DNA from: Camelus ferus
Lineage: Eukaryota
DNA: 64,000 nt
Assembly: GCF_009834535.1 (NCBI RefSeq)
Contig: NC_045696.1
Span: forward strand, 72,108,001-72,172,000
Direction of reading: 5' to 3'
Part shown: piece by piece, positions 1 to 64,000 of the stretch
Layout: every line of letters begins with the position of its first letter
Numbering within the stretch: the first letter of the stretch is position 1
The notes under the pieces: model-generated
What the model was told of the DNA's origin: nothing
Seen by the model: only the letters and a program-made list of their open reading frames with translations
The model's database searches: none
Program-made: the position numbers and the translations under genes

Positions 1-375
1 CACTTTCATTCAACATAGTAGTGGAAGTCCTAAGCAGAACAATTAGGCAAGGAAAAGAAATAACAGGCATCCAAACTGGAAAGAAGTATAATTGTAGACG
101 GTATGGTATTATATATAGAAAACCCTGAAGACCCCACCAAAAAGTATTAAAACTAATGAGCAAGTTCAGTAAAGTTGCAGGATACAAAATCGATATACAG
201 AAATCTGTGGTGTTTCTACATACTAACAACAAACTATCAGAAAGGGAAACTAAGAAAACAATCCCATTTACAATGGAACCAGAAAGAATAAAATACCTAG
301 GAATAAATTTAACCAAGGCAGTGAAAGACCTGTATACTAAAAACTGTAAGACATTGAAGAAAGAAACGGAAGAAA

Positions 376-1121
376 CCATCATCAGAAAGTCTACAAATAA
401 TAAATGCTGGAGAGGGTATGAAGAAAAGGGAACTCTCCTCTATACTGTTGGTGGGCATATAAATTTGGGCAGCCACTATGGAGAACAGTATGAAGGTTCT
501 TTAAAAAACTAACAATAGAGTTACCATATGATTCAAAAATCACACTCTTGGCCATATATCCAGAGGAAATTGTAATTTGAAATGATACATGCACCCCAAT
601 GTTTACAGCAGCACTATGTACAATAGCCAAGATATGGAAACAACCTAAATGTGCACTGACAGATGAGTGGATCAAGAAGATGTGTGTGTACGTACACACA
701 CACACACACACACACTGAAATATTACTAAGCCATAAAAGGGAATGAAATGCCACTTGCAGCAACATGGATGGACCTAGAGATGAAGTGAAGTAAGTCAGA
801 TGGAGAAAGACAAATACCATATGATATCACTTGTATGTGGAATCTAAAAAAAGTGATACAAAAAAACTTACTTACAAAATAGAAACAGACTCACATAGAA
901 AACAAACATGATTACCAAAGGGGAAGGGATAAATTAGGAGTTTAGCATTAACAGATAAACAAGGACCTACTGTATTGCACAGGGAACTACATTCAGTATC
1001 TTATAATAAACTATAATGGAAAAGATTCTGAAAAAGAACATCTTTATCTATATCTATATCTGAATCTCTCTGCTGTATACCAGAAACTAACATATAAACC
1101 AACTATACTTCAATAAAAAAA
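376..1121 (+). mobile_element. 5'-truncated L1 3' end nested in an older L1
   Basis: ORF2 C-terminal sequence (NNKCWRG; atagccaagatatggaaacaacctaaatgt), 3' UTR, ending tacttcaataaaaaaa. Confidence 0.85.
693..715 (+). repeat. (CA)n microsatellite
   Basis: Direct reading; lies inside the L1 3' region. Confidence 0.9.
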
Positions 1122-2999
1122 TTACCATGTGAAATTTTAAAAAATTATTTTGTCATTCTAGAAGAAAGACCTTAAGATCAATAAATAGTACTCTCATGGA
1201 GGCAGATTTGAACTCATTGCAGTGTGAAGCTCTCTGGAATTAAAGTTATCCAACAATAATCCAACCCCCTTCCCCCCAAAAAAAGATACTGAAGAAGACA
1301 CAAATAAATGGAAAGACAATCTATGCTCATGGATTAGAAGAATTAATATTATTAAAACGTCCATACTACCCAAAGCAAATTATAGATTCAATGCAATTCT
1401 CTTCAAAATTCCAATAGCATTTTTCACAGAAAAAGAACAAACAATCCTTTAATTTGTATGGAACCACAAAAGATTCTGAATAGCCAAAGCCATCCTTAGA
1501 AGAAAGAACAAAGCTGTAGGCTTCAGGCTTCCTCACTTCCAACAACATTGCAAAGCTCTAATAGAATAGTATGATATTGGTGTAAAAATACACACAGATC
1601 AATGGAACGGAATAAAGGACCTAGAAATAAACCCACACATATATGGTCAATTAACTTACAATAAAGAGCCAAAAACCTACAATAGGGAAAGGACAGTCTC
1701 TTAATAGTTGGTGTTGGGAGAAACAGACCACTATCTTAGAATCATACATAAAAATTAACTCAAAATGGATTAAAGATTTACATTTAAGTCCTGAAACCAC
1801 CAAAGTCCTAGGAAAAAAATTATGTGGTAAACTCCTTAACATCAGTCTTGGTATTGATTTTTTGGAACTGACACCAAAAGCAAAAAAGTGGGACTACACC
1901 AAACTAAAAAGCTTCTGTGACCAAAGGAAGCCATCAACAAAACGAAACGGCAATCTACAGAATGGGAGAAAATATTTGCAAATCATATATCCAACAAAAA
2001 GTCGAAGCAAGAAAATAAACTATACAATTAAAAAATGAGTAGAGGTTCTGAACAGACATTTTCCCAAAGAAGACATACAGACAGACAACAGGTATATGAA
2101 AAGGTGCTCAACATCACTAATCATCAGGGAAATGCTAGTCAAAACCACAATGTTACCTCACACCTGTTAATGAGAATGGCTATTATCAAAAAGGCAGTAA
2201 GTATTGGTTGACGATGTGGAGAAAAAGGAACACTTGTACATTGTTGGCAGGAAAGTAAATTGGTGTAGCTGTGGAAAGCAATACAGAAGTTCAACCTATG
2301 ATCCAGCAATTCTACTTCTGAGTATTTATCCAAAGAAAATAAAAAAAATTAACTTGAAAAGATATGTGCAAAGCCATGTTCACTGAAGCACCTATGTCCA
2401 CTTACAGTATCTAACATATGGAAACAACCTAAGTTTCCAATGATGGATAGATGGTAAAGAAAATGTACATACATACATACATAAAGGAATATTCAGCCAT
2501 AAAAAATAAGGAAAACTCTGCTATTTGGGACAACATGGATGGACCTTGAGGGTATTATGCTGAGTGAAATAAGTGACATAGAAAGATAAATAACCACATG
2601 AGCCAATTTATATGTGGAATCTAAAACAAAAACAAAAAAACTAAGCGCATGAATTAGAGAACAGCTTGGCAGTTGCTAGAGGCAGGAGCTTAGGGGTGGG
2701 TGAAATAAATGAAGGGGGTTAAAAGGTACAAACTTCTATTTACAGAATAAATCAGTTGTGGGGATGTAATGTACAGTATGGTGACTATAGTTAATACTGT
2801 TTTGCAACTTTGAAAGCTCCTCAGAGAACAGATATTAAAAGTTCTCATAACAAGAAAAAAATTTCTAACTATGTTTGGTGATGGATGTTAACTAGGCTTA
2901 TTAACCATTTCACAATACATACAAATATATCAAATTATGTTATAAATATGAAACTAATGGTATCTGACAATTATATCTTAAGAAAAGTGTGTGGAAAAA

Positions 3000-5900
3000 T
3001 AATCTAGAAAGGAGAAATTATTTACATATGCAGATGAGTCTTATGAACTAAACTGAAATATGGACAAGCTACTAGTAACATATAAAATGTATAGGCATAA
3101 CTTGAGTAAACTAATGAACTATAAAATATATATTAGAAATATTAAAAAAAAAAAAAGACAGCTCCTCTCAAAAAAAACCTCGGGTCCAAATGTTTTTATT
3201 CTACCAAACTTTCAAAATAGTTTAATTCTATTTTATGCAAGTTGTTCCAGAAACCAGAAAACTGGTGGGGGGGGGGGGAGTAGGCTGCGGGAGCAGGGGG
3301 ACTGGGAGGCTTTCCCAGCTCATTCATTGAAATTACTATAATACTGACTCAAAAACAAGGGGAAAAAACAATAAAAAGAGAAATTATAAGCCCATTTATG
3401 TACATAGATGCAAAATCCTAAATAAAGCAATAGTTAAGTGAATCCAACACAGCACTAAAAATAATATATCATGAACAAGCAAGATTTGTGCCAATAATGC
3501 GAGGATTGTTCAATATCAGAAAAATCCATCAATATATTTCTCCATGTTAATAAAATAATGAAAAACATTTTATGATAATTTTAATTGAACCAGAAAAATC
3601 ACTTTGCAAAGTTCAACACCTGTCTATAATTAACTGTTAGTAAACCAGGAATAGAAGGGAATATTCTCAGTAAGGGAAAAGCTATGATGTATACTCAAAC
3701 CCTACAGCATATATTACACTAAATGGGTAAATGTTAGATGAATTCCTTTTAAGAAACGAAATTAGGATATCCTTATTACCAAAAATGTTTAACACAGTAT
3801 TGGAAACCCTAAGGAAAAAGAAGTGAAGGGAATGGAAGGGGGAAAAAATTATATCCTCCAAATATTTAGAAATCAAAACACCTCTAAATAATTCAGGGAT
3901 CAAAGAAGAATCATAAAGGAAAAAAGAAAACATTCTGATATGAGTAACAGTGTAAAGATACAATCTGTGGAATGCATCTGAAGCAATGCCTAGAGGGAAA
4001 TTGTACAGTTTTACTGTCTTTATTAAAAAGAAGTGTTTAGAATCAATTATCGAAACTTCAAAAAAGCCATAAAAGAGCAAATTAAAACCAAAATAGAAAG
4101 AAGGAATAATAAAGATGAGACATAGGGTAATAAAAACAAATGGATAAAATTAACACTGCCAGAAGTTGGTTCTTGGAAAAAAATTAATAAACTTGATTAA
4201 ACCTATAGCAAGACTGGTCAGATTAAAAAGTCAAGAAAAAAGCTACTAATATAAAAAAGGAAAGCAGAAACATTACTACAGATCCCACAGTCAGTATAAG
4301 GATAATTCAAAGAATATTCTGAACAATTTTATGTCAAAAATAGTGGCAATTACCTGAAATGGACAAATTCCTTAGAAGATAAAACTTACCAAATATGACA
4401 AAAGAAGAAATAGAAAATGTGAATAATCCTGTATCTGTTTCAGAGAGTGAATTTGTGATATACAATATTCACCCTTCAACACACAAAAAACCCCAAAAAG
4501 CAAACAAAAAAACCCCTCCAACTCTAGGCCCAGGTAACTTCAATGGTGAATTCTTCAAAAATATTAAAAGAAATAATATCAGCTATCTCATAAACTCTTC
4601 CAAAAAAGAGGGAAAGGACCACTTCCCAAATTGTTTTATGAGGCCAGCATAACCCTAATACCAAATCTGACAAAGATGTTATACGAAAATGAAATTACTG
4701 ATCTATATACTTCATAAGCACAGATACAAAAGCCCCTAACACAATATTAGTATATCAAACAGCAATATATAAAAGGTAACACATCATAACCAAGTGAAAT
4801 TTATTTCAAGGATACGAAGTTGGTTTAACATCTGAAAATCAACCATAGTATGTCACCATGTTAGCAAACTAAAACATAAAAAACTATATGGTCATCTTGA
4901 GTAATGGAGAAAAAGCATTTTCAAAATTCAACACATATGTTTCTCACCATGTCTGTTTAACATTGTACAGGAAGTTCTAGACAGTGCAATAAAATTGTAA
5001 CTAGAGATTAAAGGCACAGATATTGAAAAAATTGAAACAATTCTCAGATGATGTAACTGTGTGCATCATAATCAAAAAGGTTCCACAGAAAAGAAAAAAA
5101 AAAAAAATTTTACTAGACCAGTAAAATGAATTTAGCAAGGTTAAGTTACAAAGTCAAAAGCACAAAAATTGCAGTTATATATGATGCTAATAATTGGAAA
5201 ATAAAAGACAATTCTAGTTACCACAGCACCAAAAACCTTAAAAATTTTAGGAGTTAACGGTCTGCCAGATGTCTACACTGTACAAAACATTCCTGAGAAA
5301 ATAAAGACCTAAAATAAATGGACAGATATACTATGTCCACAGACTAGAAGAGTCTAATAGTTAAATGTCAGTGATTTCCAGATTGCTCAATTCAGAGCAA
5401 TCCAAATCAAAATCAGATCAGGATTAAAAAAATATATAAATTAATCAATTTATTCCAAAATTTATATGGAAATACAAAGTCCTAGGATAGCTAAAACAAT
5501 CGACATCAGAATTGTAGGACTTAGATACCTGATCTCAAAGCTAGACATAAAGCTATAGTAATCAAGACAGTGTGCTACAGGTATAATGATAAGTGAACAG
5601 AGTCCAGAAATAGACCACATTTATATAGCTGGTTAATTTTAAAGGGACACCAAATGAATTAAATGGAGATAGAGGACATTTTCAACAAATGAAGCTAAGC
5701 CAAACAGATACTCTTATCGGAGTTAGGAGGAAGGAAGATCCTCAATCCTTGCCTCATACCATACACAGAAATGAATTTGAGATGGATCATGAACTTAAAC
5801 TTAAGAGCTAAGACTGGAGAGCTTTCACAATGTTCTCCTAGGGCAGTCTACCCAGGCAATAGAAGTGAAAACAAAAATAAATAAATGGGACTTAATTAAA

Positions 5901-8030
5901 CTTATAAGGTTTTGCACAGCAAAGGAAACCGCAAGCAAAACAAAATGACAACCTACAGAATGGGAGAAAATATTTGCTAATGATGTGACTGACAAAGGTT
6001 TAATTTCCAGAATATATAAATAGCTCATACAGCTTAATAACACAAAACCAAACAATCCAATCTAAAAATGAGCAGAAGACCTAACTAAACAAGCAATTCT
6101 CCAATGAAGACATACAAATGGGCAACAGGCACATGAAAAAATGCTCAGTATCACTAATTATTAGAGAAATGCAAATCAAAACTATACTGAGTTATATCAC
6201 CTCACATCAGTCAGAATGGTCATCATTCAAAAGTTCACAAACGATAAATGCTGGAGAGGGTGTGGAGAAAAGGGAACCCTCCTACATTGTTGATGGGAAT
6301 GTAGTTTGCTGCAGTTGTTATGGAAAACAGTATGGAGATTCATCAAAAACTAAAACAGACTTACCATATGATCCAGTAATCCCACTCCTGGGCATATATC
6401 CAGAGGGAACCTTAATTCAAAAAGATACATGCACCCCAATGTTCACAGCAGCACTGGTTACAATAGCCAAGACATGGAAACAACCTAAATGTCCATAGAC
6501 AGATGACTGGATAAAGAAATTGTGATATATTAATACAATAGAATATTACTCAGCCATAAAAAGAATAAAATAATGTCATTTGCAGCAACATGGATGGATT
6601 TGGAGATTGTCATTCTAAATAAAGTAAGCCAGAAAGAGAAGAAAAAAATATCATTATCACTTACATGTGGAATCTAAAAAAAAAAGACAAATCAATATAT
6701 ACAAAACAGAAAGAGACTCACAGACATAGAAAACAAACATGGTTACTAGGGGAGAAGGGGGTGGGAAAGGATAAACTGGGAGTTCGAGATTTGCAGATAC
6801 TAACTCATATATATAAAATAGATAAACAACAAGTTCATACTGTACAGCACAGGGAACAATATTCAGTATCTTGTAACTTATGGTGAAAAAAATTAAAATG
6901 AATATATGTATGTTCATGTATGACGGAAGCATTATGCTGTACATCAGAAATTGACACAACATTGTAAACTGACTATACTTCAACAAAGTGTAAGACTAGA
7001 GTGCTTTCAGAAGAAAACATGGGAAATATCTTCACGAACTTGGGGCTGACAAAATATTCAAATGACACAAAAAGCATACAACTGGAAAGGAAACAAAAAA
7101 AACCCCAGACTTCATCAAAACGAAACACTTCTGCTCCCCAAAGTCACCATTAAAAAAATATACAGGCAGGCCAGACTGGGGGAAAATCCTAGCAGTATAT
7201 ATATCCAACAAAGAACTTACATCCTTATGAAGAGGATTCCAACCATTCTGTAATGAGACAAGTAGCCTAATGAAAAAAATGGCCAGACACCCGAACAGAC
7301 ATTTCAGGAAAAAAAAAAGATAAATTGCCAGTAAGCATATGAAAAGGAGTTAAACATCATTAGTCATGCAAATTAAAATCATGAGATAAAATAGAACAAC
7401 TGGAACTCTCATTATTCCAAACACATAAATACACATAAAATGGCATATACAGTCACTTTGGAAAACTTTTTGGCAGTTTCTCATAAAATTAAATGTAAAC
7501 CTATTTGATGACTCAGCAATTTCACTAGTTATTTAGTAAGAGAAATGAAAACATGCCAATAATGTTCATAATAACTATACTTATAATCACCTCAAATTGT
7601 AAATTGTGCAAATGTGTCCATAAATCAAAGAAAGGATAACTGTGGGATGTTCCTGAAAAGGAACACTACTGAGTAGCAAAAAAAATCCCAAACTATTGAT
7701 ATATGCAACAACACGGAGGAATCGCATAGATGCTGTGAACCACGTCAGATGCAAAAGTAAACATGTAAAATTTCATTTATATGAATTTCAGGAACAGGTA
7801 AAACTAATCTATGACAATAGAAAACAGCAAAAATGGTTGCCAAGGTCAGGAGGAGAGAGAAATATATTTCCTGGAAAGAGGCACAAAGGAACTTCCTGGG
7901 ATGATGAAAAGGTTTTCTATCTGGTTTGGAGTTAGGATTACACAGATGTATACATTTGTTAAAAGTGGCAGAATGTAGTCCTAAAATTGATGCACTTCAC
8001 TATCTACACATTTTACTTGAATACAAACAA
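3000..8030 (+). mobile_element. Old fragmented L1M elements (ORF2 remnants and 3' end)
   Basis: Decayed ORF2 motifs (GPGNFNGEF, FPNCF, gatgcaaaatcctaaataaa) and old L1 3'-end-like sequence at 7500-8030. Confidence 0.8.
5828..6990 (+). mobile_element. Younger 5'-truncated L1 with 19-bp TSD
   Basis: ORF 6118-6498 is the L1 ORF2 C-terminus ([14 protein letters not shown]...[11 protein letters not shown]...WKQPKCP); TSD taagactggagagctttca (5809-5827) / taagactagagtgctttca (6991-7009). Confidence 0.92.
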
Positions 8031-15500: not shown

Positions 15501-17270
15501 TATCATTTTAAAAACATAAAGCCAACCAAGTATTAAAAATTTTTTTTATCAATAGATAAGAGAATAGTGTCTCCTCTACCCTTTATTCCTCTGGAGTCTT
15601 TCTTTCCAACATTTTCCAAGCGATGGAACATGTAGAAAATGATACTATTTACATGGCACACTGTGGACAATCGAAATCACCATCTATCCTTGCTCATCTG
15701 TAACCCTTCATGCACACCAGAGCCCTGCTGCTCTGATTTGTGGACTTTAATATCATCACCTAACGTACACCGAAGTATGAAAAAAGTTACTTCTATTCCT
15801 TAATATTTCCTAAATAATAATGTCTCTTGGATAACCACATAAAGAACTGAATCAATTTCATTTTTAAATACAGTTTAAGTAGTATTTACCAAAAGATGGT
15901 ATTTTTTTGTTATAATCCACAAAAGCAAATCTAGTTCAAGAAACACATTTGGGAGGGGATAGAAATGTTAAGATTCTTCTAAACCATAATTTAAAGAGCC
16001 TGTTCTAACTTACAAACTTTTAATTAGACCACAAATGCCAAGTAAAAACTTAAAAATCATAACTCATTTTAAAACATCATTACATAGATAAAAAGATATA
16101 GGAGAGCAGAAATGCAGCCTTATATGTTTATAAATACCTCAAAGTCTCAAATGACTGAGTAGTAAATACGCACGAAGAATAAGAAAAGCAAAAATCTTCT
16201 GATTTTACTATTATGTGTAGATTATTTTATAAATACAAAAAAGCAAAAAAATGCAGGAAATAAAACAACAGTATAGGTATAATCAAAAAAAGAAAGTTAT
16301 AAATACCAACCAAGAGTACCATATACACACTCCTATATTCACATTTGAGAAAGACTGTAAAGCAAAATTTTTGTTCATTAGATGAAACGTCTCTTCAAAG
16401 GTGCTTTTTCTTCCTCTGTTAGTGAAAGAACCCTCTACCCTAAAGCCACACAGTGAAATACCATCAAAGAGTGCTAATAAATGGCACACTTTCTGCTTCA
16501 GCTGATAAAACCAGCTGCTGATTTATTAGGTATCTAGAGATGCAGGTTCATCCTGTTGCAGTTTACAGGATACTCAACTGCAGCAAAGGCTACTTAGAGA
16601 AATTTCACACCTGCTGACATGGGTTGGACTACATCTTCCGATTACTCGTTCCAGCATTCTTCCAATAGACGCGCACGCTGTTTCTCCTTCTGAGAAACAG
16701 CACATGGAGTCCAAGCACTTGATACTTGAATTTGTTTCAGTAAGCTGGAGGAGTTGAAGCAGAAAAATATTATTTATAGGTTTGGAATTCCAGAAAGCAT
16801 TAAAAAAATTACAACAAGCACTTTAAAAATCAAAAGTAATGTATATAAATACATGTTTTCTACAATATGGAAGGCTTTAATTAAGAATAATCATACAAAA
16901 ATATTTAAAAGACACTGTGTCCAAAATTAGAGGCTGACTGAAATAATTATATGAAAACAAATAGCTGAGTATTATATAAATCTGCAAAGATTTTGGATTT
17001 TAATATCTTAATAATATATTATGGTCAAAATGATTTACATCAATCACTTAGAACTTAATAAATTCTATTTTTTCTTTAAGCTTTTGTTTAGGTTAAATGC
17101 TCCTGCAATTTCAATTAAAAATACCTAGCAATTGAGAAAAGTAGATTGTAAGTTATTTTGAAGACTAGAAATAACCAGGCAGGACCACCTATCTCTAATC
17201 TTCAACAATAACAACAACAATAGTAGCAAACACCTTATGTAGTGTTTACCATATGCCAGGTTTTAAATAC

Positions 17271-26300: not shown

Positions 26301-29300
26301 GAAAAGCTCAAAATTATGAACTCATAGGGTTACATAAGAGGTTATTTAAGCAGTGCTTGTCAAAGCCATTCATTTGATCAAGTGAACACAGGCAGATTAG
26401 AAACTCTGAGAATAAAAAAGAACTTAAAAAATATATATGATTAAGAATCCACAAGATACTGATAGGGTGAGAAGTTGAAGGGTGCCAAAACTAAAAAAAA
26501 AAAAAAAAAAGTTGTAATACTTTTTCTCTTCAAACCAGACTGGAGTTAAAGTTAATATATAGTTTCGGTATTTTAATATGAAAAGTTCTAGGATTTAAAC
26601 TTTCATTCTCTCCCATCAAAAGACATCTCTAGACTACTGGTTATTTTTTGTGGAAAGAGAATGGATCTGTATGTGGAGATAAAGCTATATACAAGAAATA
26701 CAAAATATTTGTTCAATTTATAGATGCACTAAACAGTGCAGGGTATGAAATGTTCCGGCAGTCATTATAGTGTACAAAGACAAATATGCACATGTATTTA
26801 CAACACAGATTAAGGCAAGATAAAAGAAATGGGCAACTCTCACTTCCAAGTAACTGAAACTTAAAACTTTAAATTTTATGGTGAATTTTGTAGCTTAAAT
26901 TACTCAACATGCAGGAGCATTCTTAAATATGAATAATATGACAAGCAGAAGCATAAGAATTGTGCTAGGAAAGGTAGTTAAGATGTAAAATATATAACAA
27001 GGTACAGATCTCTGTCCTGTTATGCTGAATTTTCATCTGAATTTTATTCTCAAAGAAGAAATGGATTTTTTTAACATATATATTGATAGAGATCAAATTA
27101 GAGACAGAGCTATGCTAACAAAAATGCACCACTCTTAATCCATGCCTCTGCCCATCTTTTGAATATTTTTTAATTGACTTTCAGCATGCAGAAGAGTTAA
27201 CGAGGTTCTACTCCTCCTACTCTACCTAAGTTTGCTCAGCTGATTCCTTGCCCTCGACAATGGCTGCAGTGCGATGAACTCATCACTTAAAGCGACTGTG
27301 TTGGAGTACATCTATAAGTGGACAGAAAAGGGATGGGACATACAAGTCAGTGAGCTGTATTCATCACTTAAGAGACAGACACAGGACAAGCTTTGTAAAG
27401 ACATTTATTCCTACAAGAGTAGGAAATATACATGATATACATACATGACTGACGTTAGTAGGGCTGTTGGCTTTGCCATCAAAAGAATTTACTCTTAATA
27501 CGACACTGTTATTCTGGAGAAAAACAAAGCTCAAAACAAATGCTGACCTGACAACTCTTCTTTTAATAGGATTTTTCTTGCTACTTTTGGTAAAAAATGA
27601 AGTAAACAGCTGACAACTTTCTAACAATTTTGTCATTTGAAATCAGAGGTGGCAGTCCAAGGCTGAAATAGTAAAGATTAGTGACTAAAGTAAAGGAATA
27701 ATGTCACACATGGGATTTGAATGACCATACACTGTTTCAACAAAAACAAAACCAAAATCAAAAACCCCTAGCAGGCTAGAAGATCCCTGAGTGGAAGTGA
27801 GATTTCCTCTTTAGATTAGACCACAGTAGAACATCCAGTAAAGTAATTTAAAAGGAATTTAGTGGGGCAGAAAGGGAGCTTATGCTGGCTTTCACACACA
27901 GAAAAATGATTGATTTTTAATCAATTCCATTTTTTATCAACTTAACCAATGGTAAAAGAACCATAATATATATAAAGTACTTTTAACTTTTTCTTATCTA
28001 AGGGACCACCTTAAGGTATCCAATATTTCCTGTGTAATCCTTTAAAAGAGGCTATAAAAGCAGTAATAAGAACTAATATCACTTTTTCATTACCATTAAG
28101 AAATCTCTATGAAAATACTTAAGTTTGCAAATGCTCTGCCTAAAGAAGACTTTCTAAGGAAATGCAAACAAATCTGATTATTTACTTTTATAAAGAATTA
28201 AGCTTTTAAAGTGATGTCATTAATATATTTTGGTGAAATATAACTTTACATAGCCAAAAGGGCGAGACAAATATGTTCTCCATAATGGTCTAGAAGAAGT
28301 ATAATAGACGATGTATTAAAAATGGCATTCTCTTACCATAAATATTTATCTCTGAAGATAAGAAAAAAGATAGGCAAATCTTTCTGATATATATTTAAGT
28401 AATATATTGCAGAGTGGAAAAGCTTGTCTATAGGCAGACAGAGTAATCAAGATCATGCAAATTTTTTCAACCCCATGTGGAGATCAGTATCACAGAACAA
28501 CATGCTCATCGCCCTTAAAATTATGTTCTTACTGAGAACTTAGTACACACGACCCACGATGAGTTTTTATATTCATTATTTCTAACAATCAGGTAAGGCA
28601 GTAATTATTATTCTGATTTTACAGAAGTGGAAATTGAGGTTTAGGGAAGTGACTTAACCAAGGACATACATTTTATAAATGGTTAAAACAGTATTTGAAT
28701 TAAGTCTGTCAGGCTTCAGAGGCCTATGCTGTTCCTACGGTGTTAAAATGTATACTGACTAGGACTGAGTTATCAAAGCAAATAAATGTTAAAGAAATGT
28801 TGATATGATCAACTGAAATTAAAACCAATACACCATTTAGAAAGCCTAACTCAAATTACTAAATACCTGGGGAGCATTTATTCTATTTGTAGCATAAACA
28901 TGCAACTAAACTTCCAAAATTTAAACAAAATTTGCTTGATGTGTAGCAAACATGCAAAAATAAAATAAAACAAAAAAACACAATCCAGGCAGAACCAAAT
29001 GATTAATAAACTCTGTTTATAAAGGCTGAAATAAAAGTTGATTAGAATATATTTTTGAGGATATATATTCAATGCTATGGCACTGTTAATAGGACAAATT
29101 AAGATAGATTTCTAGTTTATGTACAAGTCAAATATACAAAAAAGACATTCAACGAAACAGCTACCATTTCTTGAGCATCTACTCTGTCTGAATATTATTT
29201 CATTCAATACTCATTACAAAGGTAATGAAGTAGACATTTTTGTCAAAATTTTACTCATGAGGAAATGGAGACTTAAAGTCACAGAGCTATCCAGTAGTAG

Positions 29301-56300: not shown

Positions 56301-59300
56301 GAGAGAAGAACTTGAAAGATCAGAGTAGGTCTAAAACAATACATACACAAGTATTTCTCGCAAATTATATTATTCTTATTTTGTACTAACCAGATTTTTA
56401 AAGAGATCGCTTCAAAATATGACTTAATGCAAGTTTAACAACAAAATTAATGACACATTTCAAATTCACATATAAAATACCTTAATGTGTTATGAATTTT
56501 GTCTGATAATTTAAAATTATTTTCTAGATTTTTCACATTTTTTATTTAAAAGTATTTTTCTGAAGATTTAAAAGTTAGACTCAAACTACCTTGCAGCAGC
56601 TTCCACTAGAGCTTTTTCATCTGGTGAAGATGCATAGTATTCCAACTGGGAAGGTGCAAGGTTGGATTGCCAGGGACCATCGCCAATGCCATCAGTCTGA
56701 ACATTGCTAATCTGCACAGTGTGACAGAGACTGACTGCTTTAAAGAAGAGGTCATGTTCTTTAATCTGTAGAAACATAATTAATACTCGTAATAAAAATA
56801 CCAATACCAAATAACATTTAAGAAACCAAAAACAAAATTCTAAAAAAGTCAATAAATACAGTTAATAATTTGGTAAACTAAGATGTAGAATAAGACTGCT
56901 ACAATCTTAAATTGCATAAATAATAGCTGGCTGCACCTCAGAAGATGACATATTACTTCTAAAGAGTAAAATGTCACATTTGCTTATGACCCTTCAAAGT
57001 GAGTATTTTTTTAGGAGGCATAACCAAATTGCCAGTAAAGATGGAAACTCTTTTATGGAAGAATTGAGATCTCAAAAGGTATTAAATAAATTTAAGCTCT
57101 ATTCCTTAGTAAAATCTTCTTTACTTCAAGGCAGAAAGGGCTTTCCTTAATCCCATGAAAAAACCCAGAGAACTAAAGTAGATACATACGAAGTGATAAC
57201 TACAAATTCTCAGTGCTGAATCAAAGGATAAATATTTCAAATGTATATTCCTTGCCTACTAACACTTAAACTTTTTCTTCTACAAATCACCAACTACCAA
57301 AGAGTTACTATTTCAAAGGAAACTCCTATTTATTAATTTAAAAATTACTTACTAGTTCAGTTTCATTTTCAGGACTGGTTCTAAAAGAGGAGCTAGTTGC
57401 AAGATGGGATAAGTTGTTAAGACGAGAAAAACTACTAAGATAAGGTAAGTTTCCTTCTGAAGAGTCTGGTGTTGGTCCTTCAGATACAAGTCTACCATTG
57501 ATTTCTTGGTATTTTACACCATTAATTGAACATTCTCGAAACTGCATCTCATTTTCTGTCAATGTACCAGTTTTATCTGTAAACACGTACTCCACCTAGA
57601 GATACAAAACAAAAGAAAACAAACCTTTGTATTCAGGGTCTTATGTTAAACAAAAAAACTTCGTCCTCTGTCTCCTGAAGTCCTTTACCTATTAACATTG
57701 ATACAGTGATGCTGAGTCTTATAAAACAAGCACAATCAAATAATTATAGATGCCATGGAAACAAACAGGGTGACAAAATATTCTAAATCTATATACACTT
57801 TGAAGTTTGTGGAATCTTTAAGTTCACGTTCATCTACAGAGTTGACTGATATTGTGGCATTAGTACTTCTTTTCTACCCTCTGGATAAGGCATTTTTAAA
57901 TAGTAGGACTAAGAATGAACTTTGAACAAGGGTGGAAGGGATGCTTAATAAGCTAAAATATGAAATAATTAATTTTAATTATTCTTCGAGGCTAATTTTA
58001 GGAAAATAACCCTAAAATAAGATAGGTCCTCAAAGAGAAAGATAAAATAGTCAAATCTTCATGTAACTAGGATTATAGTAAGGATTTGATTATTGCAATA
58101 ATGATCTGAGAAAGAAGTCATTTACAAAGGGAAGCAGATATCATAAGGGGAAAAAAAAACCCCACAGTCAGTATCTTTTATGAAAATACAAACAGAACAA
58201 ATCCAAAAAGATATAAAAAGGATTACACATCATGACATGTGGGATTTAACCCTGGAATACAAGATTAGTTAAATACAAAAATCAAATCAATGAAACCCAC
58301 CATTATAACAGAACAATACTTGTCCTTTATTCTATTAATAAAATGATCATCTCCATAGATGCAGAAAAAGCATATGGCAAAATTCAATACCCTTTCATGT
58401 AAAAGCACTCAACAAATTAGGGACAGGAGGGTACTCAATCTGATAAAATGTATCTATAAAAAACCTATAGCAAGGATCATACCTTAATGCAGAAAAACTG
58501 AATGCTTTCCCCTTAAGTTCAAGAATAAGACAAAAATGTCCGCTCTTGTCACTTTTATTTAACATTCTACTGAATATTCTAGCCAAGGTAGTTAGGCAAG
58601 AAAAAAGAAATAAAAGGTATTCACATTGGGAAAAAGATAAAAACTAATCTATTTCCTTTTTTATAGCAAATTTGAATGAATACATCAAAAAACTAATAGA
58701 ACTAATAAATGAGTTCAGCAAGATTGCAAAAACAAAAGATCAATATACAAAAAGGGAGGTAAAGTTAATGTTGGGAAAAAAACCCTCACACGGTCAGCAG
58801 CTATCATCAAAAAGAATACAAATAACAAACACTGGCAAAGATGTGGAGAAAAGACAGCCCTCGTACACTGCTCATGGGGATGTGAACTGGTGCAGCCACT
58901 ATGGAAAACAGTGGAGTTTTCTCAAAAAACTAAAAATAGAACTACCATATGACCCAGCAATTCCACTCCTGGGTATATATACAAAAAACAAACAAACAAA
59001 AAACCCTAAAAAAACTGATTTGCAAGGACACATGCTAATGTTCATAGTAGCATTATTTACAATTACTACGATATGACAGCAACCTAAGTGTCCATCAACA
59101 GATGCATGGATAAAGAAGATATGGTGTATACACACAGTGGAATACCACTAAGCCATTAAGAGAATGAAATTTTGCCATCTGCAGCAACATCAATGAACTT
59201 GGAGGGCATTATGTTAAGCAAAATAAATCAGACTGAGGAAAACAAATACTGTATAGTATCACTTATATGCGGGATCTAAAAAACACAACAAACTAGTAAA

Positions 59301-62300
59301 TATAACAAAAAAGAAGTAGACTCAGATACAGAGAACAAACTGGTGGTTGTGAATGAGGGGTCATATAGGAGTAGGGGATTAATAAGTGCAAATTATTAGG
59401 TATAAAATAAGCTATAAGGATATATTGTACAACACGGAGAATATAGCCAATATTTTATAATAACTATAAATGGAGTATAACCTTTGAAAACTGAATCACT
59501 ATATTGTACATATGTAAGTTATATAATATTGCACATAACCATACTTCAATAATAAGAAAGATTAAATGGTAGTGATGAGTATATAAATTAACTTTTATTT
59601 GAAAATACATAAAATCAAGAAGTTAAATCTTTTAACTTTGGTGAAAGAGGTCACTGGATACCTTTATAAGAGAGTTTCTTGGATAGTAAGGAAATGAAAG
59701 GACATAGAAGAGTGTGAAATAAAGTAGATTTCATTAACATAAAAACAGAAAAGTTACAGTAGCACAAACAAAAACACACCTGTAGGCTTAAAAGTAAAGA
59801 AACTGATGAATTAGAAACTGAAGACCATTATCATTTATAGTTTCTTAAAGAGAATGCAGATATGAATATCTGAGCATACAGTGTGTGGTTCCAGAAAAAC
59901 GATAATCTATCATCATAAAGGAATGAGGAGGAGGAAATAGGGATAGAAAAAGTCAAAGAAAAAAATAGGGAAAAAATGTGTTCCTGAGAAGCAGTAAAAA
60001 CAGGCTGTTTTTAGATCTTAAATATGTAATACATAATTCAAAAAATGTGACATGAATTAATATTTAGTGTTAAGTTATTAAAGCCTCCTAAATGCTATTA
60101 AAAATAAATGGATCAACTTCTGGTTAAAAATGGCAGGCTGAACAAATGCAATTAATTATCTCTGTTCCTCTTCAAACTTCACCAAAATAAGAGTAAAAGA
60201 ATAAAAAAAAGAACAGAAACAATGACAGAAGAGACAACATGAAAAGGGGAATTTTTCAAGTTTGGAAAAGAGATGAATCAATGGTAAGTGACTTAGCAGA
60301 ACTTAGAACATGAAACCTAAGCAATGGGGGAAACCCTATTCCCAGAAACTCTCAGAAAGTAGATGTACTATCACTGAATGTGGGAGTAAAGGATGAGACA
60401 GAAAATGGAGGTATCAAGAGCAGTTTGAATCCTGAAATCCCTTTATAACTTTGCAAATTTGATACTGACCCCCTTCTATCAGAGCAATAGCTGACAGGGT
60501 TTATTCTCTAAGGAGGCTGAACCAGAGAGAATCTGGACCCTGTGGAAAGCTGAAAATGGGTGAGCAGTGCACTAAAAACAGGTTTCTACTGGACAGCTCC
60601 AACAATCACAAGCAGAAGAAATACCAACCGCAGTTATTCTCTCTGGGGAAACTGAAGAAAGATCAATTATCGATATTGGGAACACCCCAAAAAACAGCTG
60701 GGCTGCCAGGCTTTTCTAGAGGAAACTTTTAGAATTGTAAAGAAAACCAAACATTAGTATTCATTTGAGGATATCCACTTACATAAAAAGGTAGAGTCTA
60801 AAACAAATTATAGGAAATTCTGCTAAAACACTGTCTTAAAAGGACAAGAATTTATTACAATAAGATTGATACATAAGGACACAATTTGAGCTTAATATGA
60901 GCACAGTTTGGTTATGTACAATTTCATCTATGAGAAATGGTAGGTGAATGGAGAAAACTGCACCTAGAATACATGAAATGTACAAACAGCTAGCAGCTAC
61001 CACAGGTCACCATATATAAGCCGCACCCATCCACATATGATACAACTTTCCTTCTGTTTTCTGATAACCTTCCTTTCAATACTTCACAGTAATATATAAG
61101 TTGGAATATTTCAGATGGCCATTTCCACAAGTAAACGTCAGAGTTTTTCCAAAATAAACTGCCATATTTATTGCAGTATTTATCTATTTCTTAATAATTC
61201 AGCAAGCCCTGTTTTTATCAGGCTCCTATCTTTTTATTTTAAATGTGTTACTGACAAAGTTTTATTGTACACCTATCTCATTTTCCCATAATAAGCCCTG
61301 TGGTTTTTACTAAGCAATTTTGTATAGAACACTGATTTTTAGGGATGCGTGTCACATTACAGCAGAACTGACGTATTGAAAAAGGAACTCTGTACAAACA
61401 GAAAATGCAGGGAGCAGAAGACTTTAAAAAAAACTGTCATTAATATCCTCAGAGAGGTAAAAGAATAAAGTATATTCAGGAAACAAGAATAAGATGTAAT
61501 TAAGAGAAGGCTATTCAGATATACTAGAATTATTAGAAATTTAAAATATTACAATAGATATAAAAGAAATCAAAAGAAAGGGGGAAATACAAAGTTCACA
61601 AATTCTCCCAAAAAGCAGATTATAAAAACAAGGAAATGAAAATTGAAAGTCAAAAAGAATTAGAGAATCAAGATAAATGATCTGACATCCAAACTAATAA
61701 ATTTCTACAAAAAAAAACCCCACAAAACATAAAAAGACATGTTTATCAAATTAAGAAAAATTCCTAGAATTGAAGAATATGTGTTTCCAGACTAAAAGTG
61801 TTCAGTGTTCACTGCCCAATGAAAGAAAAAAAAAAGAAAGAAAACAAAAACAAAAAACTCACACCAAGGCATACTATCATAAAATTTCAGAACTATTGCA
61901 GAAAGAAAAGATTCTTAAACCCTAAATACTTTCAGAGATAAAACAACAAACTACATAGAGAACCTGGGAATCAGAATGGCACTAGACTTCTTAACAGAAA
62001 CACTAGAAGCTAGGGGGAAAAAAACAAAAATGGAGAAATGTTTTTGAATTTTTGAGGAAAAATAATTTCCAGCCTTGAACGTGTTACCCAGCTGAATTAT
62101 TAATCAAGTGTAAAAAGGGAATCAAGATATTTTCAGACTTTCAAAGCTCAAAATATTTTTCTTACGCACCCCCTTTCAGAAGTTATTAGAAGAAATAAGA
62201 GAGTAAGTCACAGGTGGGAAGACATAGAATCTAGAAGACAAGAAATCCAAAACAGGCGGTAGACAAAGGAACTGCCAAGGTGATGATAAAGGAAGTCTAG

Positions 62301-63170
62301 GGTGACAGGCTGAGAAGCTGGCCCAGAAAGAAGTCTGAATTGAAGCAGGAAGATAAAAGGCTTCAAAAGAGAGTGAGGGAGAGAGCAATAAAGATTAAAG
62401 AAGTCCTAGATTACCTGATGTGTATGAATACGTAGAGATGTTTCATTTATTTGTCAGAGATTTGTTTTTGGTATATGGAAATTAAAAAATGAAAATACAG
62501 AGCAATTAACTCTAGCAAAAACATCTAAGAAAGAAAATGTAATTATAGTATTATAGGGCACACATAAATAACTAGGAGTTAGTGAACGACTCTAAAAGTC
62601 ATAATAATGTCAATAAGTGAATATTTATTAAATCTCAAATTGTGATTTAACAATATTGGGACCATGGGGCAGTAAAGTGGGTATGTGTCTGTTTGCATAG
62701 GGTTGTGAAAGGAGTAGTATAAGAGCCATATCTTTATATTCCATGGTAAATAATGTCTCAAATTGAAAAACAACAAAGAATACTATATACAAACACAGTG
62801 CTAAATAGTGAAAGAAATGGCTTAATATTTAAAACTGTGAAATAAGAAATTAGGTATGGAGCAAAGTAGTGATTTTTTTGGTATAAGCCTCATAATATTT
62901 TTGTTTCATTTATCTTTGTACACGTATAATTTTGATAAAAATAACAAATTAGAAAAACAAAACGATCATTACCTGTCCAAGTTCTTCATTTAGATCAGAA
63001 GTATTGACTTGAGCTTTCTGATCTGATTCTTCATGATAGAGATCAAGATCCCAGCCAATAAAAAATGACCCAAGAAACTTCTGCATTTCGACTGTCACAT
63101 ATAACGAAATTGGAATGATGAAATTGTAGAGTACCAAAAAAGCAAGGAAGTCTGAAATAAATTTCAGAAT
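12443..63170 (-). CDS. ATP11B: ATP11B P4-ATPase phospholipid flippase, 5'-partial spliced CDS (19 exons in window, probably exons 12-30)
   Basis: Exons join in frame to 843 aa + TAA. Motifs: TM4 [11 protein letters not shown], phosphorylation site DKTGT, TGDK, GDGAND. C-terminus [26 protein letters not shown] recognised as ATP11B rather than ATP11A/C. Exon numbering is inferred from the recalled human structure. Confidence 0.96.
16611..16744 (-). CDS. ATP11B: ATP11B penultimate exon, 134 nt
   Basis: [44 protein letters not shown](R); CAG acceptor, AG|GTGTGA donor; phase 0/2. Confidence 0.93.
17273..17325 (+). repeat. (CA)n microsatellite with (TACA)n tail
   Basis: Direct reading. Confidence 0.9.
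18910..19150 (-). mobile_element. MIR SINE remnant
   Basis: MIR core-like attttacagataaggaaacagaga...aagctcatccagttag. Confidence 0.65.
19478..19768. mobile_element. hAT/Charlie-like MER DNA transposon remnant
   Basis: cagtg...cactg terminal inverted ends with AT-rich interior. Confidence 0.45.
20734..20895 (-). mobile_element. tRNA-derived SINE (camelid-type), full length
   Basis: Minus strand box A TAGCTTAGTGG, box B GGTTCAATTCC, A-rich tail; TSD ccataaatctt at 20723-20733 and 20896-20906. Confidence 0.88.
24178..24303 (-). CDS. ATP11B: Candidate alternative (possibly terminal) exon of ATP11B, 126 nt to the first plausible donor
   Basis: Strong acceptor CTTACTGCTTTTCTGTCCTTCCAG. Phase-2 entry reads (R)[27 protein letters not shown]; phase-0 entry reads MEEDKGS...SSCVH*. 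Possible donor TAG|GTAGTA. Confidence 0.6.
   Translation of the reverse strand: MEEDKGSVSSAYEFAESKHRGEDSRHLLAEACSQQDSSCVH
27226..27311 (-). CDS. ATP11B: Candidate alternative cassette exon of ATP11B, 86 nt (frame-shifting)
   Basis: CTGAC branch-like motif, pyrimidine tract and TAG acceptor; open in phase 0 as [36 protein letters not shown] donor; several CpGs in an otherwise CpG-poor intron. Confidence 0.75.
28560..28740 (-). mobile_element. MIR SINE remnant
   Basis: attttacagaagtggaaattgaggtttagggaagtgacttaaccaagg. Confidence 0.65.
29150..29360 (-). mobile_element. MIR SINE remnant
   Basis: ttttactcatgaggaaatggagactt...aagtcacagagcta. Confidence 0.6.
29673..29838 (-). CDS. ATP11B: ATP11B exon, 166 nt (TM10)
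   Basis: [55 protein letters not shown]; phase 2/0. Confidence 0.95.
31114..31217 (-). CDS. ATP11B: ATP11B exon, 104 nt (TM9)
   Basis: [34 protein letters not shown](W); phase 0/2. Confidence 0.95.
31748..31813 (-). CDS. ATP11B: ATP11B exon, 66 nt (TM8)
   Basis: [22 protein letters not shown]; phase 0/0. Confidence 0.94.
32190..32338 (+). mobile_element. Very short young L1 3' end with 10-bp TSD
   Basis: Matches the 3' terminus of the L1 at 6870-6985; TSD agaaatcaca at 32180-32189 and 32339-32348. Confidence 0.88.
33541..33992 (+). mobile_element. Solo ERV LTR (452 bp, likely class I/ERV1)
   Basis: TG...CA ends, perfect 4-bp TSD GACT, TATA-like ctatatat ~33847, AATAAA ~33942. Confidence 0.85.
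34170..35160 (-). mobile_element. L2 LINE remnant
   Basis: L2 3' motifs (actgagcactgagtctatgccaagcacc, purine-rich body, aagatcacctgggctgctgtatgg). Confidence 0.7.
35180..35265 (+). mobile_element. MER20-like hAT fragment
   Basis: cagtggttctcaa...gattttgcctcccagggaaca...tctgaagacatttttggttgtca. Confidence 0.65.
36560..36780 (+). mobile_element. MIR SINE remnant
   Basis: ggctttgaagtcatacagatctgagttta...ggcaaattccttaacctctctgag. Confidence 0.7.
37968..38106 (-). CDS. ATP11B: ATP11B exon, 139 nt (TM7)
   Basis: [46 protein letters not shown]; phase 2/0. Confidence 0.95.
38612..38739 (-). CDS. ATP11B: ATP11B exon, 128 nt (TM6)
   Basis: [42 protein letters not shown](R); phase 0/2. Confidence 0.95.
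40105..40267 (+). mobile_element. tRNA-derived SINE (camelid-type), full length
   Basis: ggggagggtatagctcaagtgg (box A), gagttcaatccc (box B), aataaataaacctaattacc tail, poly(A); degenerate TSD ending cactttg. Confidence 0.88.
40460..40519 (-). CDS. ATP11B: ATP11B exon, 60 nt (TM5)
   Basis: [20 protein letters not shown]; long poly-T acceptor; phase 0/0. Confidence 0.93.
41749..41894 (-). CDS. ATP11B: ATP11B exon, 146 nt
   Basis: [48 protein letters not shown]; phase 1/0. Confidence 0.95.
42355..43175 (-). mobile_element. 5'-truncated L1 3' end
   Basis: Reverse complement closely resembles the L1 at 376-1121 (ORF2 C-terminus, 3' UTR, T-rich tail). Confidence 0.88.
43400..44480 (-). mobile_element. 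Ancient L1 (L1ME-like) remnant
   Basis: Decayed motifs taccaatttacattcccactaacaa, tgaacacttttttcatg, tttaatccatctggaatt. Confidence 0.6.
45374..45476 (-). CDS. ATP11B: ATP11B exon, 103 nt (GDGAND motif)
   Basis: [34 protein letters not shown](G); phase 0/1. Confidence 0.96.
46742..46895 (-). CDS. ATP11B: ATP11B exon, 154 nt
   Basis: [51 protein letters not shown]; phase 2/0. Confidence 0.95.
47935..48145 (+). mobile_element. Young L1 3' end fragment
   Basis: Near-identical to 6810-6985 and 32190-32310. Confidence 0.85.
48852..49743. mobile_element. hAT DNA transposon (MER58/Cheshire-like), internally deleted
   Basis: TIRs caggggttggca ... tgccgccccctg; 8-bp TSD aactgtat / aactccat. Confidence 0.78.
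49773..49976 (-). CDS. ATP11B: ATP11B exon, 204 nt (TGDK motif)
   Basis: [40 protein letters not shown]...LRQLAR(R); phase 2/2. Confidence 0.96.
51195..51376 (-). CDS. ATP11B: ATP11B exon, 182 nt
   Basis: [60 protein letters not shown](K); phase 0/2. Confidence 0.95.
51387..51452. repeat. Perfect 32-bp tandem duplication
   Basis: aaattaaagacaaaaattgaacaaaacttact x2 (+aa). Confidence 0.95.
52639..53292 (+). mobile_element. Young L1 3' end with 5' inversion and 13-bp TSD
   Basis: Intact ORF2 C-terminus ([24 protein letters not shown]...); TSD aaggacataattc at 52626-52638 and 53293-53305. Confidence 0.92.
53306..53975 (-). mobile_element. L1MB-like 3' end
   Basis: ccagctcctggcaaccactaat, ccattcatcagttgatgaacatttgggtgtttccactttttggctatt. 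Confidence 0.8.
54195..54298 (-). CDS. ATP11B: ATP11B exon, 104 nt (KGA nucleotide-binding motif)
   Basis: [40 protein letters not shown] donor; phase 1/0. Confidence 0.95.
54372..54445 (-). CDS. ATP11B: ATP11B exon, 74 nt
   Basis: [24 protein letters not shown](G), containing the P-type F-x-S-x-R-x-RMS motif; phase 2/1. Confidence 0.95.
54620..54830 (-). mobile_element. MIR SINE remnant
   Basis: ccattttacagataagg...aatttgcctaaagtca...aggattggaatccag. Confidence 0.65.
55335..55385 (-). mobile_element. Head-only fragment of the tRNA-derived SINE
   Basis: Reverse complement GGGGGAGAGTATAGCTCAAGTGCTAGAGCACACACTTAACGTGCATGAGGT matches the first ~50 nt of the copies at 40105 and 20895. Confidence 0.75.
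55556..55737. mobile_element. MER58A-like hAT MITE
   Basis: caaggatcagtaaact ... tttactgattcttg inverted termini; MER58-type interior. Confidence 0.7.
55789..55857 (-). CDS. ATP11B: ATP11B exon, 69 nt
   Basis: [22 protein letters not shown](R); TAG acceptor, GTAATT donor; phase 2/2. Confidence 0.93.
55998..56305 (+). mobile_element. Poly(A)-tailed retroposed fragment, LTR U3-R-like
   Basis: C-rich segment, CCAAT 56126-56130, CATAAA 56251-56256, A23 tail 56270-56292, (AG)n, flanking aagaac direct repeat. Confidence 0.55.
56590..56765 (-). CDS. ATP11B: ATP11B exon, 176 nt (N domain)
   Basis: [17 protein letters not shown]...[16 protein letters not shown](R); phase 0/2. Confidence 0.95.
57353..57595 (-). 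CDS. ATP11B: ATP11B exon, 243 nt (catalytic Asp, DKTGT)
   Basis: [26 protein letters not shown]...[11 protein letters not shown] acceptor, GTAAGT donor; phase 0/0. Confidence 0.96.
58140..59560 (+). mobile_element. L1 fragments (ORF2 RT piece joined to a 3' end)
   Basis: ORF 58672-59076: [14 protein letters not shown]... then [20 protein letters not shown]; 3' UTR ending tacttcaataataag. Confidence 0.85.
60110..62945 (+). mobile_element. Ancient L1M remnant (5' region/ORF1-like and 3' end pieces)
   Basis: cttctggttaaaaatggc start; ORF1-like cacaccaaggcatactatcataaaatttcagaac and aatcagaatggcactagacttc. Confidence 0.6.
62973..63170 (-). CDS. ATP11B: ATP11B exon, 198 nt (TM4 with PISL motif)
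   Basis: AG acceptor, GTAATG donor; [66 protein letters not shown]; phase 0/0. Confidence 0.95.
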
Positions 63171-64000
63171 CTAGGAGGGAAAATGATTGTTTGGTAAGAG
63201 AAAATACATGAGAATTTCTTAATTATCAGATATTTAAGAAAACTGTAAGACAGTTTCATATCAAAACAGACCATCAACTACATTCTGAAGCAGAATAGTC
63301 TCATGAATTGAAATTCATTTATTGAATTGTCTTTTTAACACATTTCCTTTGGCTATTTTATTGCTCATTAGAATCCTGAACACAGTAAAAGACGAAAAGG
63401 TTAAATTCAAATTACTTTATTTGTTACTTTTTATAGAAGCTACCAAAAACGTTTTGCGACTAAAAACTACCTGTGGCAAAACTATAATAAAAACCTCTGG
63501 GGTATATTTACTATTCTACTTCTAGTCTTCAAAATCAGATAATTACAAATTGACTGTAATTTAAAAAATTTAAAATAATAGCTAGGCTAGAACTATTAGA
63601 AACTGAAATTCTTAATTATTGACCATACAGGAATAGCCTACTTCAATGGCAGAGCAACTCCACATGTGTTCTGGGAAAGGTAAAATATTTAATTGTGATT
63701 GATACTGAAAAAACGTTCCTGTCATTATCTGCTCTGTGGTCTCCTGAGATCCAAACTTGTCTTCCAATATTTGTATTCTGATCTCAAGTGAAATTTGGAG
63801 AACAATTATTTACTAAAATTGCAGGTTAACTTCTCCTGGTAGTCCACACTCAACCAGTTTAAACTTTTATGACATAATTTGATTTGTTACTTCATACATG
63901 AATACACTGATAGTAAGACTCCTAGATTTATTCTGATAAAACTGAAAATAAATCAACTTACTCTTTAACTCAATAACATACATAAATGGAGTAAAAAATT

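Follow-up and report, generated by a model that had tools for sequence, protein, structure and literature searches.

A conserved alternative exon behind the TM10 exon of ATP11B that probably opens a switch between C-terminal tails

The DNA analyzed here, called the window throughout (the whole stretch of 64,000 nt), contains, on its minus strand, the 3′ half of a P4-ATPase gene, the last exons of which match records named ATP11B or ATPase IF. Its relevant features, listed from 5′ to 3′ along the gene, are the following:

29838-29673, minus strand: e28, the last constitutive exon (166 nt, ending in phase 0), with TM10 and the start of the tail
27350-27312, minus strand: acceptor region of exon X by sequence inspection, with a branch-like CTGAC (27350-27346), a pyrimidine tract and a TAG acceptor
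27311-27226, minus strand: exon X, an alternative coding exon of 86 nt (28 codons plus 2 nt), its peptide being part of annotated isoforms that range from camel to coelacanth
27190-26908, minus strand: two TGCATG (27190, 26913) and one more GCATG (27145) 3′ of the X donor, candidate RBFOX sites
24303-24178, minus strand: exon Y (126 nt), giving after X 28 residues and the stop TAG at 24221-24219
16744-16611, minus strand: e29, the canonical exon (134 nt), apparently dual-coding, read in frame 0 without X and in a shifted frame after X, with the stop TAA at 16644-16642
16610-16522, minus strand: e29L, a read-through of the e29 donor, with the stop TGA at 16576-16574 and an AATAAA at 16527 as candidate internal poly(A) site
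12524-12443, minus strand: e30, the coding part of the terminal exon, entered in phase 2, with 26 residues and then a stop

All tails discussed below are translations of possible exon joins within the window. A published pair of human primers could be placed on the exons flanking X and Y, the forward primer in e28 at 29760-29741 (1 mismatch) and the reverse primer in e29 at 16627-16647 (2 mismatches). In the 3′ UTR region a near-identical stretch of ~60 nt was seen by eye to occur twice on the minus strand (11790-11725 and 11215-11150), and both ends of the window (1-8000 and 58000-64000) have a low G+C content and a strong positive AT skew (0.18-0.32), as expected of LINE-1 on the plus strand.

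An earlier note on this DNA had described X as an 86-nt segment with a CTGAC, a pyrimidine tract, a TAG acceptor, an AG/GTAGAG donor and an open reading frame in phase 0, and re-reading the sequence returned every one of these features. X has the canonical AG and GT sites, the branch point and the pyrimidine tract of a cassette exon, and both its inclusion and its skipping are annotated within single species (Camelus, Rousettus, coelacanth). A simple home-made scoring matrix places its acceptor among the best 1.6% of the AG sites on the minus strand of the window and its donor, a weak one, among the best 11% of GT sites. In the 12.9-kb intron, X is the sole segment of 60-200 nt open in phase 0 that reaches X's own acceptor and donor scores, a scan whose thresholds were taken from X itself and which shows only that few segments resemble it. 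The G+C content of X is 48% and it has 3 CpG, against 0.32 CpG per 86 nt across the intron, and its peptide is single-copy in the 2.09-Gb genome.

The decisive evidence that X did not arise by chance is the conservation of its peptide. Using a desman protein with X and most of Y unchanged as the query for X-bearing proteins, all 17 proteins returned (of 20 candidates) carried the X peptide, a search for shorter X-bearing proteins returned 4 of 7, and cluster look-ups gave more. The identity of X to the window is 28/28 in Camelus bactrianus, fruit bat and ground squirrel, 27/28 in rat and orca, 26/28 in a duck, 25/28 in platypus, 24/28 in a frog, 21/28 in sugar glider and 18/28 in coelacanth. 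Read after X, Y is identical to the window at 28/28 positions in Camelus bactrianus, fruit bat, ground squirrel, rat and orca, and at 26 (glider), 23 (platypus), 21 (frog) and 21 (coelacanth) of 28, and its stop falls at the same position in each; in the duck model, Y is left early (12/28). The corresponding figure for the canonical tail in coelacanth is 57/71. In the 56-aa X-Y tail, 26 columns are invariant over 14 sequences, coelacanth included, and the changes are mostly conservative; the region around the X-Y junction is basic and holds an invariant Trp and two invariant Leu. Judged from these comparisons, X is a real and ancient alternative exon that is already in gene annotations, and it is very probably translated as part of ATP11B. 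The suspicion in the earlier note that it is annotated but little studied was borne out: X is present in RefSeq isoforms, and a literature search that covered few subscription papers found no functional study of ATP11B tails or tail isoforms.

A tally was made of 117 proteins with a recognisable ATP11B e28 end, among which 16 continue as X-Y, 18 as X and shifted e29, 1 as X and another sequence, none as X-e30, 2 as Y only, 58 as canonical e29 and 22 otherwise (mostly gene calls reading through into the intron); this tally is redundant and query-biased, Y has a different end in two of the X-Y models, and the count leaves out four X-bearing proteins that lack the e28 anchor. The canonical comparators were 48 matches to the canonical e29 frame, and most X-bearing records are RefSeq model (XP) isoforms. 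Both junctions proposed earlier for X, to 24303 (Y) and to 16744 (e29), exist as annotated isoforms, which use the same exon and the same junctions (X-Y, X-e29 shifted) with no sequence-level difference from those described here. Isoform X3 of Camelus bactrianus (XP_074223335.1) is identical to the window over X and Y, and other annotated X-bearing isoforms are XP_036075827.1/828.1 (Rousettus), XP_038959541.1 (rat), PNI54635.1 (chimpanzee isoform 10) and XP_064418350.1/353.1 (coelacanth). In addition, e28-X-Y occurs without introns in P0066, P0192 (Logan) and P0193 (JGI/IMG), on contigs of at most 1.3-6.6 kb from other animals, and gene calls on short contigs give an intron-less X-Y in P0102 and an intron-less e28-Y in P0096 and P0194; we infer that these short-contig records represent spliced RNA of other animals. 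Among the sequencing runs listed, 20/24 hold at least half of the region's words and 4 of these are recorded as RNA, a listing that says nothing about splicing. P0082 (hippopotamus) and P0069 (tamarin) have short insertions, either where X joins e29 or ahead of X, which suggest alternative acceptors in some of the models.

As the earlier note had proposed, X replaces the whole distal tail. The canonical tail (e29-e30, X skipped) has 71 aa and is cysteine-rich (6 Cys), and in its place stands either the X-Y tail, which has 56 aa, is basic (9 K/R vs 3 D/E) and carries its single Cys at the very end, or the shifted X-e29 tail with 62 aa, 8 K/R, 6 D/E and 2 Cys. Further possible tails are Y-only (41 aa), e29 read-through (56 aa) and X-e30 (55 aa). 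X had also been called frame-shifting, which holds relative to e29 only, and the shift is not disruptive, as both resulting frames are conserved. Between coelacanth and the window, e29 is identical at 36/44 residues in frame 0 and at 21/33 in the shifted frame, and in amphibians 20-25 of the 33 shifted-frame residues are retained. A null in which the coelacanth frame-0 protein is kept and synonymous codons are drawn at random gives 11.4-12.3 shifted-frame identities (P 0.0002-0.0003), under the assumption of free synonymous sites, so that constraint at the RNA level could contribute to the observed identity; in only 6-12% of the same draws is the shifted frame open. Exon e29 appears to be dual-coding, with two frames that are each annotated and conserved.

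Spliced straight from e28, Y is open over 41 codons, contains a match to [DE]xxxLL and ends with a stop in its last 3 nt; P0096 and P0194 are 34/41 identical over this frame 0 of Y and carry the [DE]xxxLL match. An open frame 0 of Y is expected in 30% of null draws and is not significant by itself, and these records hint only faintly that Y may be read in two frames. Read-through tails of e29 are annotated in platypus and coelacanth. Beyond the e29L TGA (16576-16574), the next 15 codons of the window resemble the longer read-through tails of platypus (P0048) and coelacanth (P0042), which suggests either that this stop was gained later or that it is occasionally read through.

Sellier 2010, as cited in reviews, reportedly described an ATP11B 'exon 28B'. 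In the available text of these reviews (PMC3245940, PMC4671264, PMC3379894, PMC3848198), exon 28B is included less often when SAM68 is depleted, and FXTAS is accompanied by altered ATP11B splicing. Clark 2007 (PMC1896007), in the part available, gives for human ATP11B an 'Ex29 cassette' detected by RT-PCR and a brain-enriched exon, DQ925668; the primers bracket exactly the e28-e29 intron, and two alternative exons lie there, as X and Y do in the window. The available text of Reyes and Huber 2018 (PMC5778607) lists ATP11B E039 as heart-enriched and describes it as the same event and pattern as in Clark, so that the literature holds tissue-biased splicing in brain and heart (PMC1896007, PMC5778607) within this ATP11B interval. 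Which of the published names (Ex29 cassette, DQ925668, exon 28B, E039) corresponds to X and which to Y was judged tentatively from their order. Table 2 of Wu 2019 (PMC6440020), as far as available, contains a 126-nt Atp11b cassette whose inclusion is lower by 0.44 and 0.28 after TDP-43 depletion in mouse neocortex, and this exon is probably Y, matched by length only. The view of X in the earlier note as an exon of predicted isoforms held in so far as X is annotated, but it is not merely predicted, as alternative exons in this interval were seen by human RT-PCR in 2007 and have been tied to Sam68. In their available text, these papers address splicing and not the function of the tails. Neither the name 'exon 28B' together with ATP11B nor the start of the X peptide turned up in any paper of the literature searched, and the available parts of PMC7261485 and PMC3723527 have nothing on these ATP11B exons.

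In a scan for splicing motifs (24 motif-by-flank cells), Sam68-type motifs were not enriched, and the one cell to stand out was TGTG on the upstream side of Y (7 vs a mean of 1.6, 1.3% of windows). These seven TGTG lie within the 300 nt 5′ of Y (24603-24304, minus strand), a signal that is weak after multiple testing and fits the reported TDP-43 dependence of the 126-nt mouse exon. The TGCATG and GCATG 3′ of X, which we take to be RBFOX motifs and therefore candidate sites, include at least two TGCATG within 400 nt downstream of the donor, as in 0.9% of windows, and only 1 within 300 nt, as in 10% of windows, so that the RBFOX excess depends on window size. ACTAAY motifs, presumably of the QKI/STAR type, were seen at 27682, 27459, 24079 and 16423 (minus strand), upstream of X and downstream of Y and e29.

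Very probably, X is a regulated cassette exon and the entry point of a switch between ATP11B C-terminal tails. In the mechanism that we propose, skipping of X would leave the common 71-aa tail of e29 and e30, while its inclusion would exchange this tail for the X-Y or the shifted X-e29 tail. In neurons and muscle, Sam68 and RBFOX-type factors may act on the weak X donor to favor inclusion; a dependence on such factors fits this weak donor together with the two TGCATG within 400 nt downstream. The exchange would then remove or change an endosomal sorting signal and move the flippase to another membrane pool, most likely with more of it at the plasma membrane. As set out in the available text of Okamoto 2020 (PMC7530900), the localization of ATP11 proteins is set by their C-terminal regions, so that the tail decides the site of action, and the C-terminal region of ATP11B, its endosomal address, is needed for targeting to early/recycling endosomes and is sufficient for it on a membrane anchor. 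Swapping tails between ATP11 proteins altered their localization, reportedly not their activity, and the residues of the endosomal signal are stated there as not known (PMC7530900); they could lie in the e28 part common to all isoforms. Because the ATP11B tail carries this address, its loss is the simplest outcome of X inclusion, and a scan of the X-containing tails for [DE]xxxL[LI], YxxPhi and LLxY motifs had no match, so that none of these known sorting signals would be gained in exchange. A change of localization is the outcome we favor, with moderate confidence.

That X might be a pseudo-exon or annotation noise has in its favor the weak donor alone, and this reading is close to negligible given the conservation of X to coelacanth, the intron-less junctions on contigs from sequencing runs and the published RT-PCR across the same intron. 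X and e29 could also be thought of as mutually exclusive exons that share the frame of e30, as their lengths (86 and 134 nt, both 3n+2) have the same phase and X-e30 is open with a 55-aa tail; this arrangement was rejected as very improbable, with no X-e30 against 18 X-e29 among the 35 X-containing proteins tallied. A poison exon, the inclusion of which (as X or X plus Y) would mainly lower ATP11B output via nonsense-mediated decay, with peptide conservation as a by-product of conserved RNA elements, agrees with the length of 86 nt (3n+2) and with the likely constraint at the nucleotide level (19/31 inferred e29 third positions common to coelacanth). As a general rule, a stop within 50-55 nt of the last junction escapes decay. 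With its stop 31 nt ahead of that junction X-e29-e30 escapes by this rule, as does X-Y-e29L with 41 nt, while Y-e29-e30 (134 nt) and X-Y-e29-e30 (175 nt) should not, and the distances thus speak for a poison exon in the latter two forms and against it in the former two. Further evidence against it is the conserved coding product, with its 26 invariant columns over 14 sequences, and, if the 126-nt mouse exon is Y, the drop of 0.44, which means a steady-state inclusion of at least 44% in cortex; on balance we consider it quite unlikely that decay is the main purpose of X. The X-Y form nevertheless poses a real question, a decay paradox, in that its protein is strongly conserved and yet splicing through e29 to e30 predicts decay; an X-Y mRNA ending at the AATAAA behind e29 (16527) or within the intron downstream of Y would not trigger it.

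The alternative tails could instead regulate activity or bind a partner or lipid, as an autoregulatory, polybasic or possibly calmodulin-type element, with the localization unchanged. The basic X-Y junction region with its invariant Trp and two invariant Leu lends itself to this idea, and it may bear a likeness to calmodulin-binding segments. C-terminal tails also regulate ATP8A1, ATP8A2, ATP8B1 and Drs2, according to the available text of PMC11775268. The X-Y tail, on the other hand, contains no G[FY]AFS-type motif, has no match in Pfam, PDB (best E 1.4) or ESM Atlas (best score 0.78), and has a lower hydrophobic moment than the canonical tail (0.33 vs 0.57); the absence of a reported effect of ATP11 tail swaps on activity in what is available of PMC7530900 likewise counts against regulation of activity. 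An AlphaFold2 model of the full-length X-Y isoform (14-row alignment) was uninformative (mean pLDDT 30.9). We regard this alternative as a serious one, albeit on the unlikely side, and the localization, activity or binding, and decay readings are not fully exclusive.

A tail switch with an effect on localization, the reading preferred here, can be extended tentatively, and more doubtfully than its parts, to a combinatorial 3′-end switch that would date back at least to the coelacanth-tetrapod split. Exon e29 would play a triple role in it (frame-0 coding, shifted-frame coding and 3′ UTR), neuronal use of Y would be coupled to the internal poly(A) site or Y would itself end the transcript, either of which would let X-Y escape decay, and the isoforms of neurons and heart would be relocated. 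Without the endosomal signal, these isoforms would flip phosphatidylserine at the plasma membrane or the synapse, and loss of Sam68 or TDP-43 (FXTAS, ALS/FTD) would relocate a flippase. The literature ties the ATP11B event to Sam68 (FXTAS) and also to TDP-43, in the latter case probably by way of Y. That almost the entire tail is exchanged, in a conserved and tissue-regulated manner, points to ATP11B forms in brain and heart that may have a location of their own. Exon X itself was already known, and splicing within the interval has been in print since 2007; the value of the present analysis lies in three or four defined tails, an apparently dual-coding exon e29 and the decay paradox of X-Y.

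The earlier note had likened X to the alternative tail of ATP11C, and this analogy stood for position and phase, as the tail starts right after the TM10 exon, but not for descent, as X has no detectable homology to it and lacks SVRPLL and LLxY, the motifs of ATP11A/C tails. In this genome the TM10 exons of both ATP11A and ATP11C could be placed, and the 9.7 kb downstream of each were examined. Here the ATP11C-a exon lies ~6 kb downstream of its TM10 exon, in phase 0 and with SVRPLL intact (L004 sense ~6316, G000:C37). Among 2898 six-frame pieces other than X and Y themselves, the profile HMMs of X and Y gave no hit better than E 1.4, and anchored scores of X against four ATP11A-type tails, compared with shuffles, were not convincing (P = 0.32, 0.26, 0.09 and 0.018), the four tails having been picked by eye and the best of them (P 0.018) being an ab initio gene call that is itself among the 42 background tails. 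A supposed likeness (E-F-x-x-L-x-x-L) between X and the ATP11A/C tail exons failed both the profile and the shuffle test, and their homology was rejected for the 9.7 kb behind each TM10 exon. In its layout the X switch nonetheless resembles that of ATP11C, whereas membership by descent is not supported by the sequences. The available text of PMC11775268 gives splice variants for ATP11C only, and PMC9035003, in the part available, reports for ATP11A a 104-bp exon after exon 28, in a region that matters in hearing loss; like X, this exon is 3n+2, follows the TM10 exon and is spliced to several downstream exons. In the ATP11C-a/-b/-c variants the alternative tails begin directly after the TM10 exon, as in ATP11B, which, unlike ATP11C, reuses e29 in two frames.
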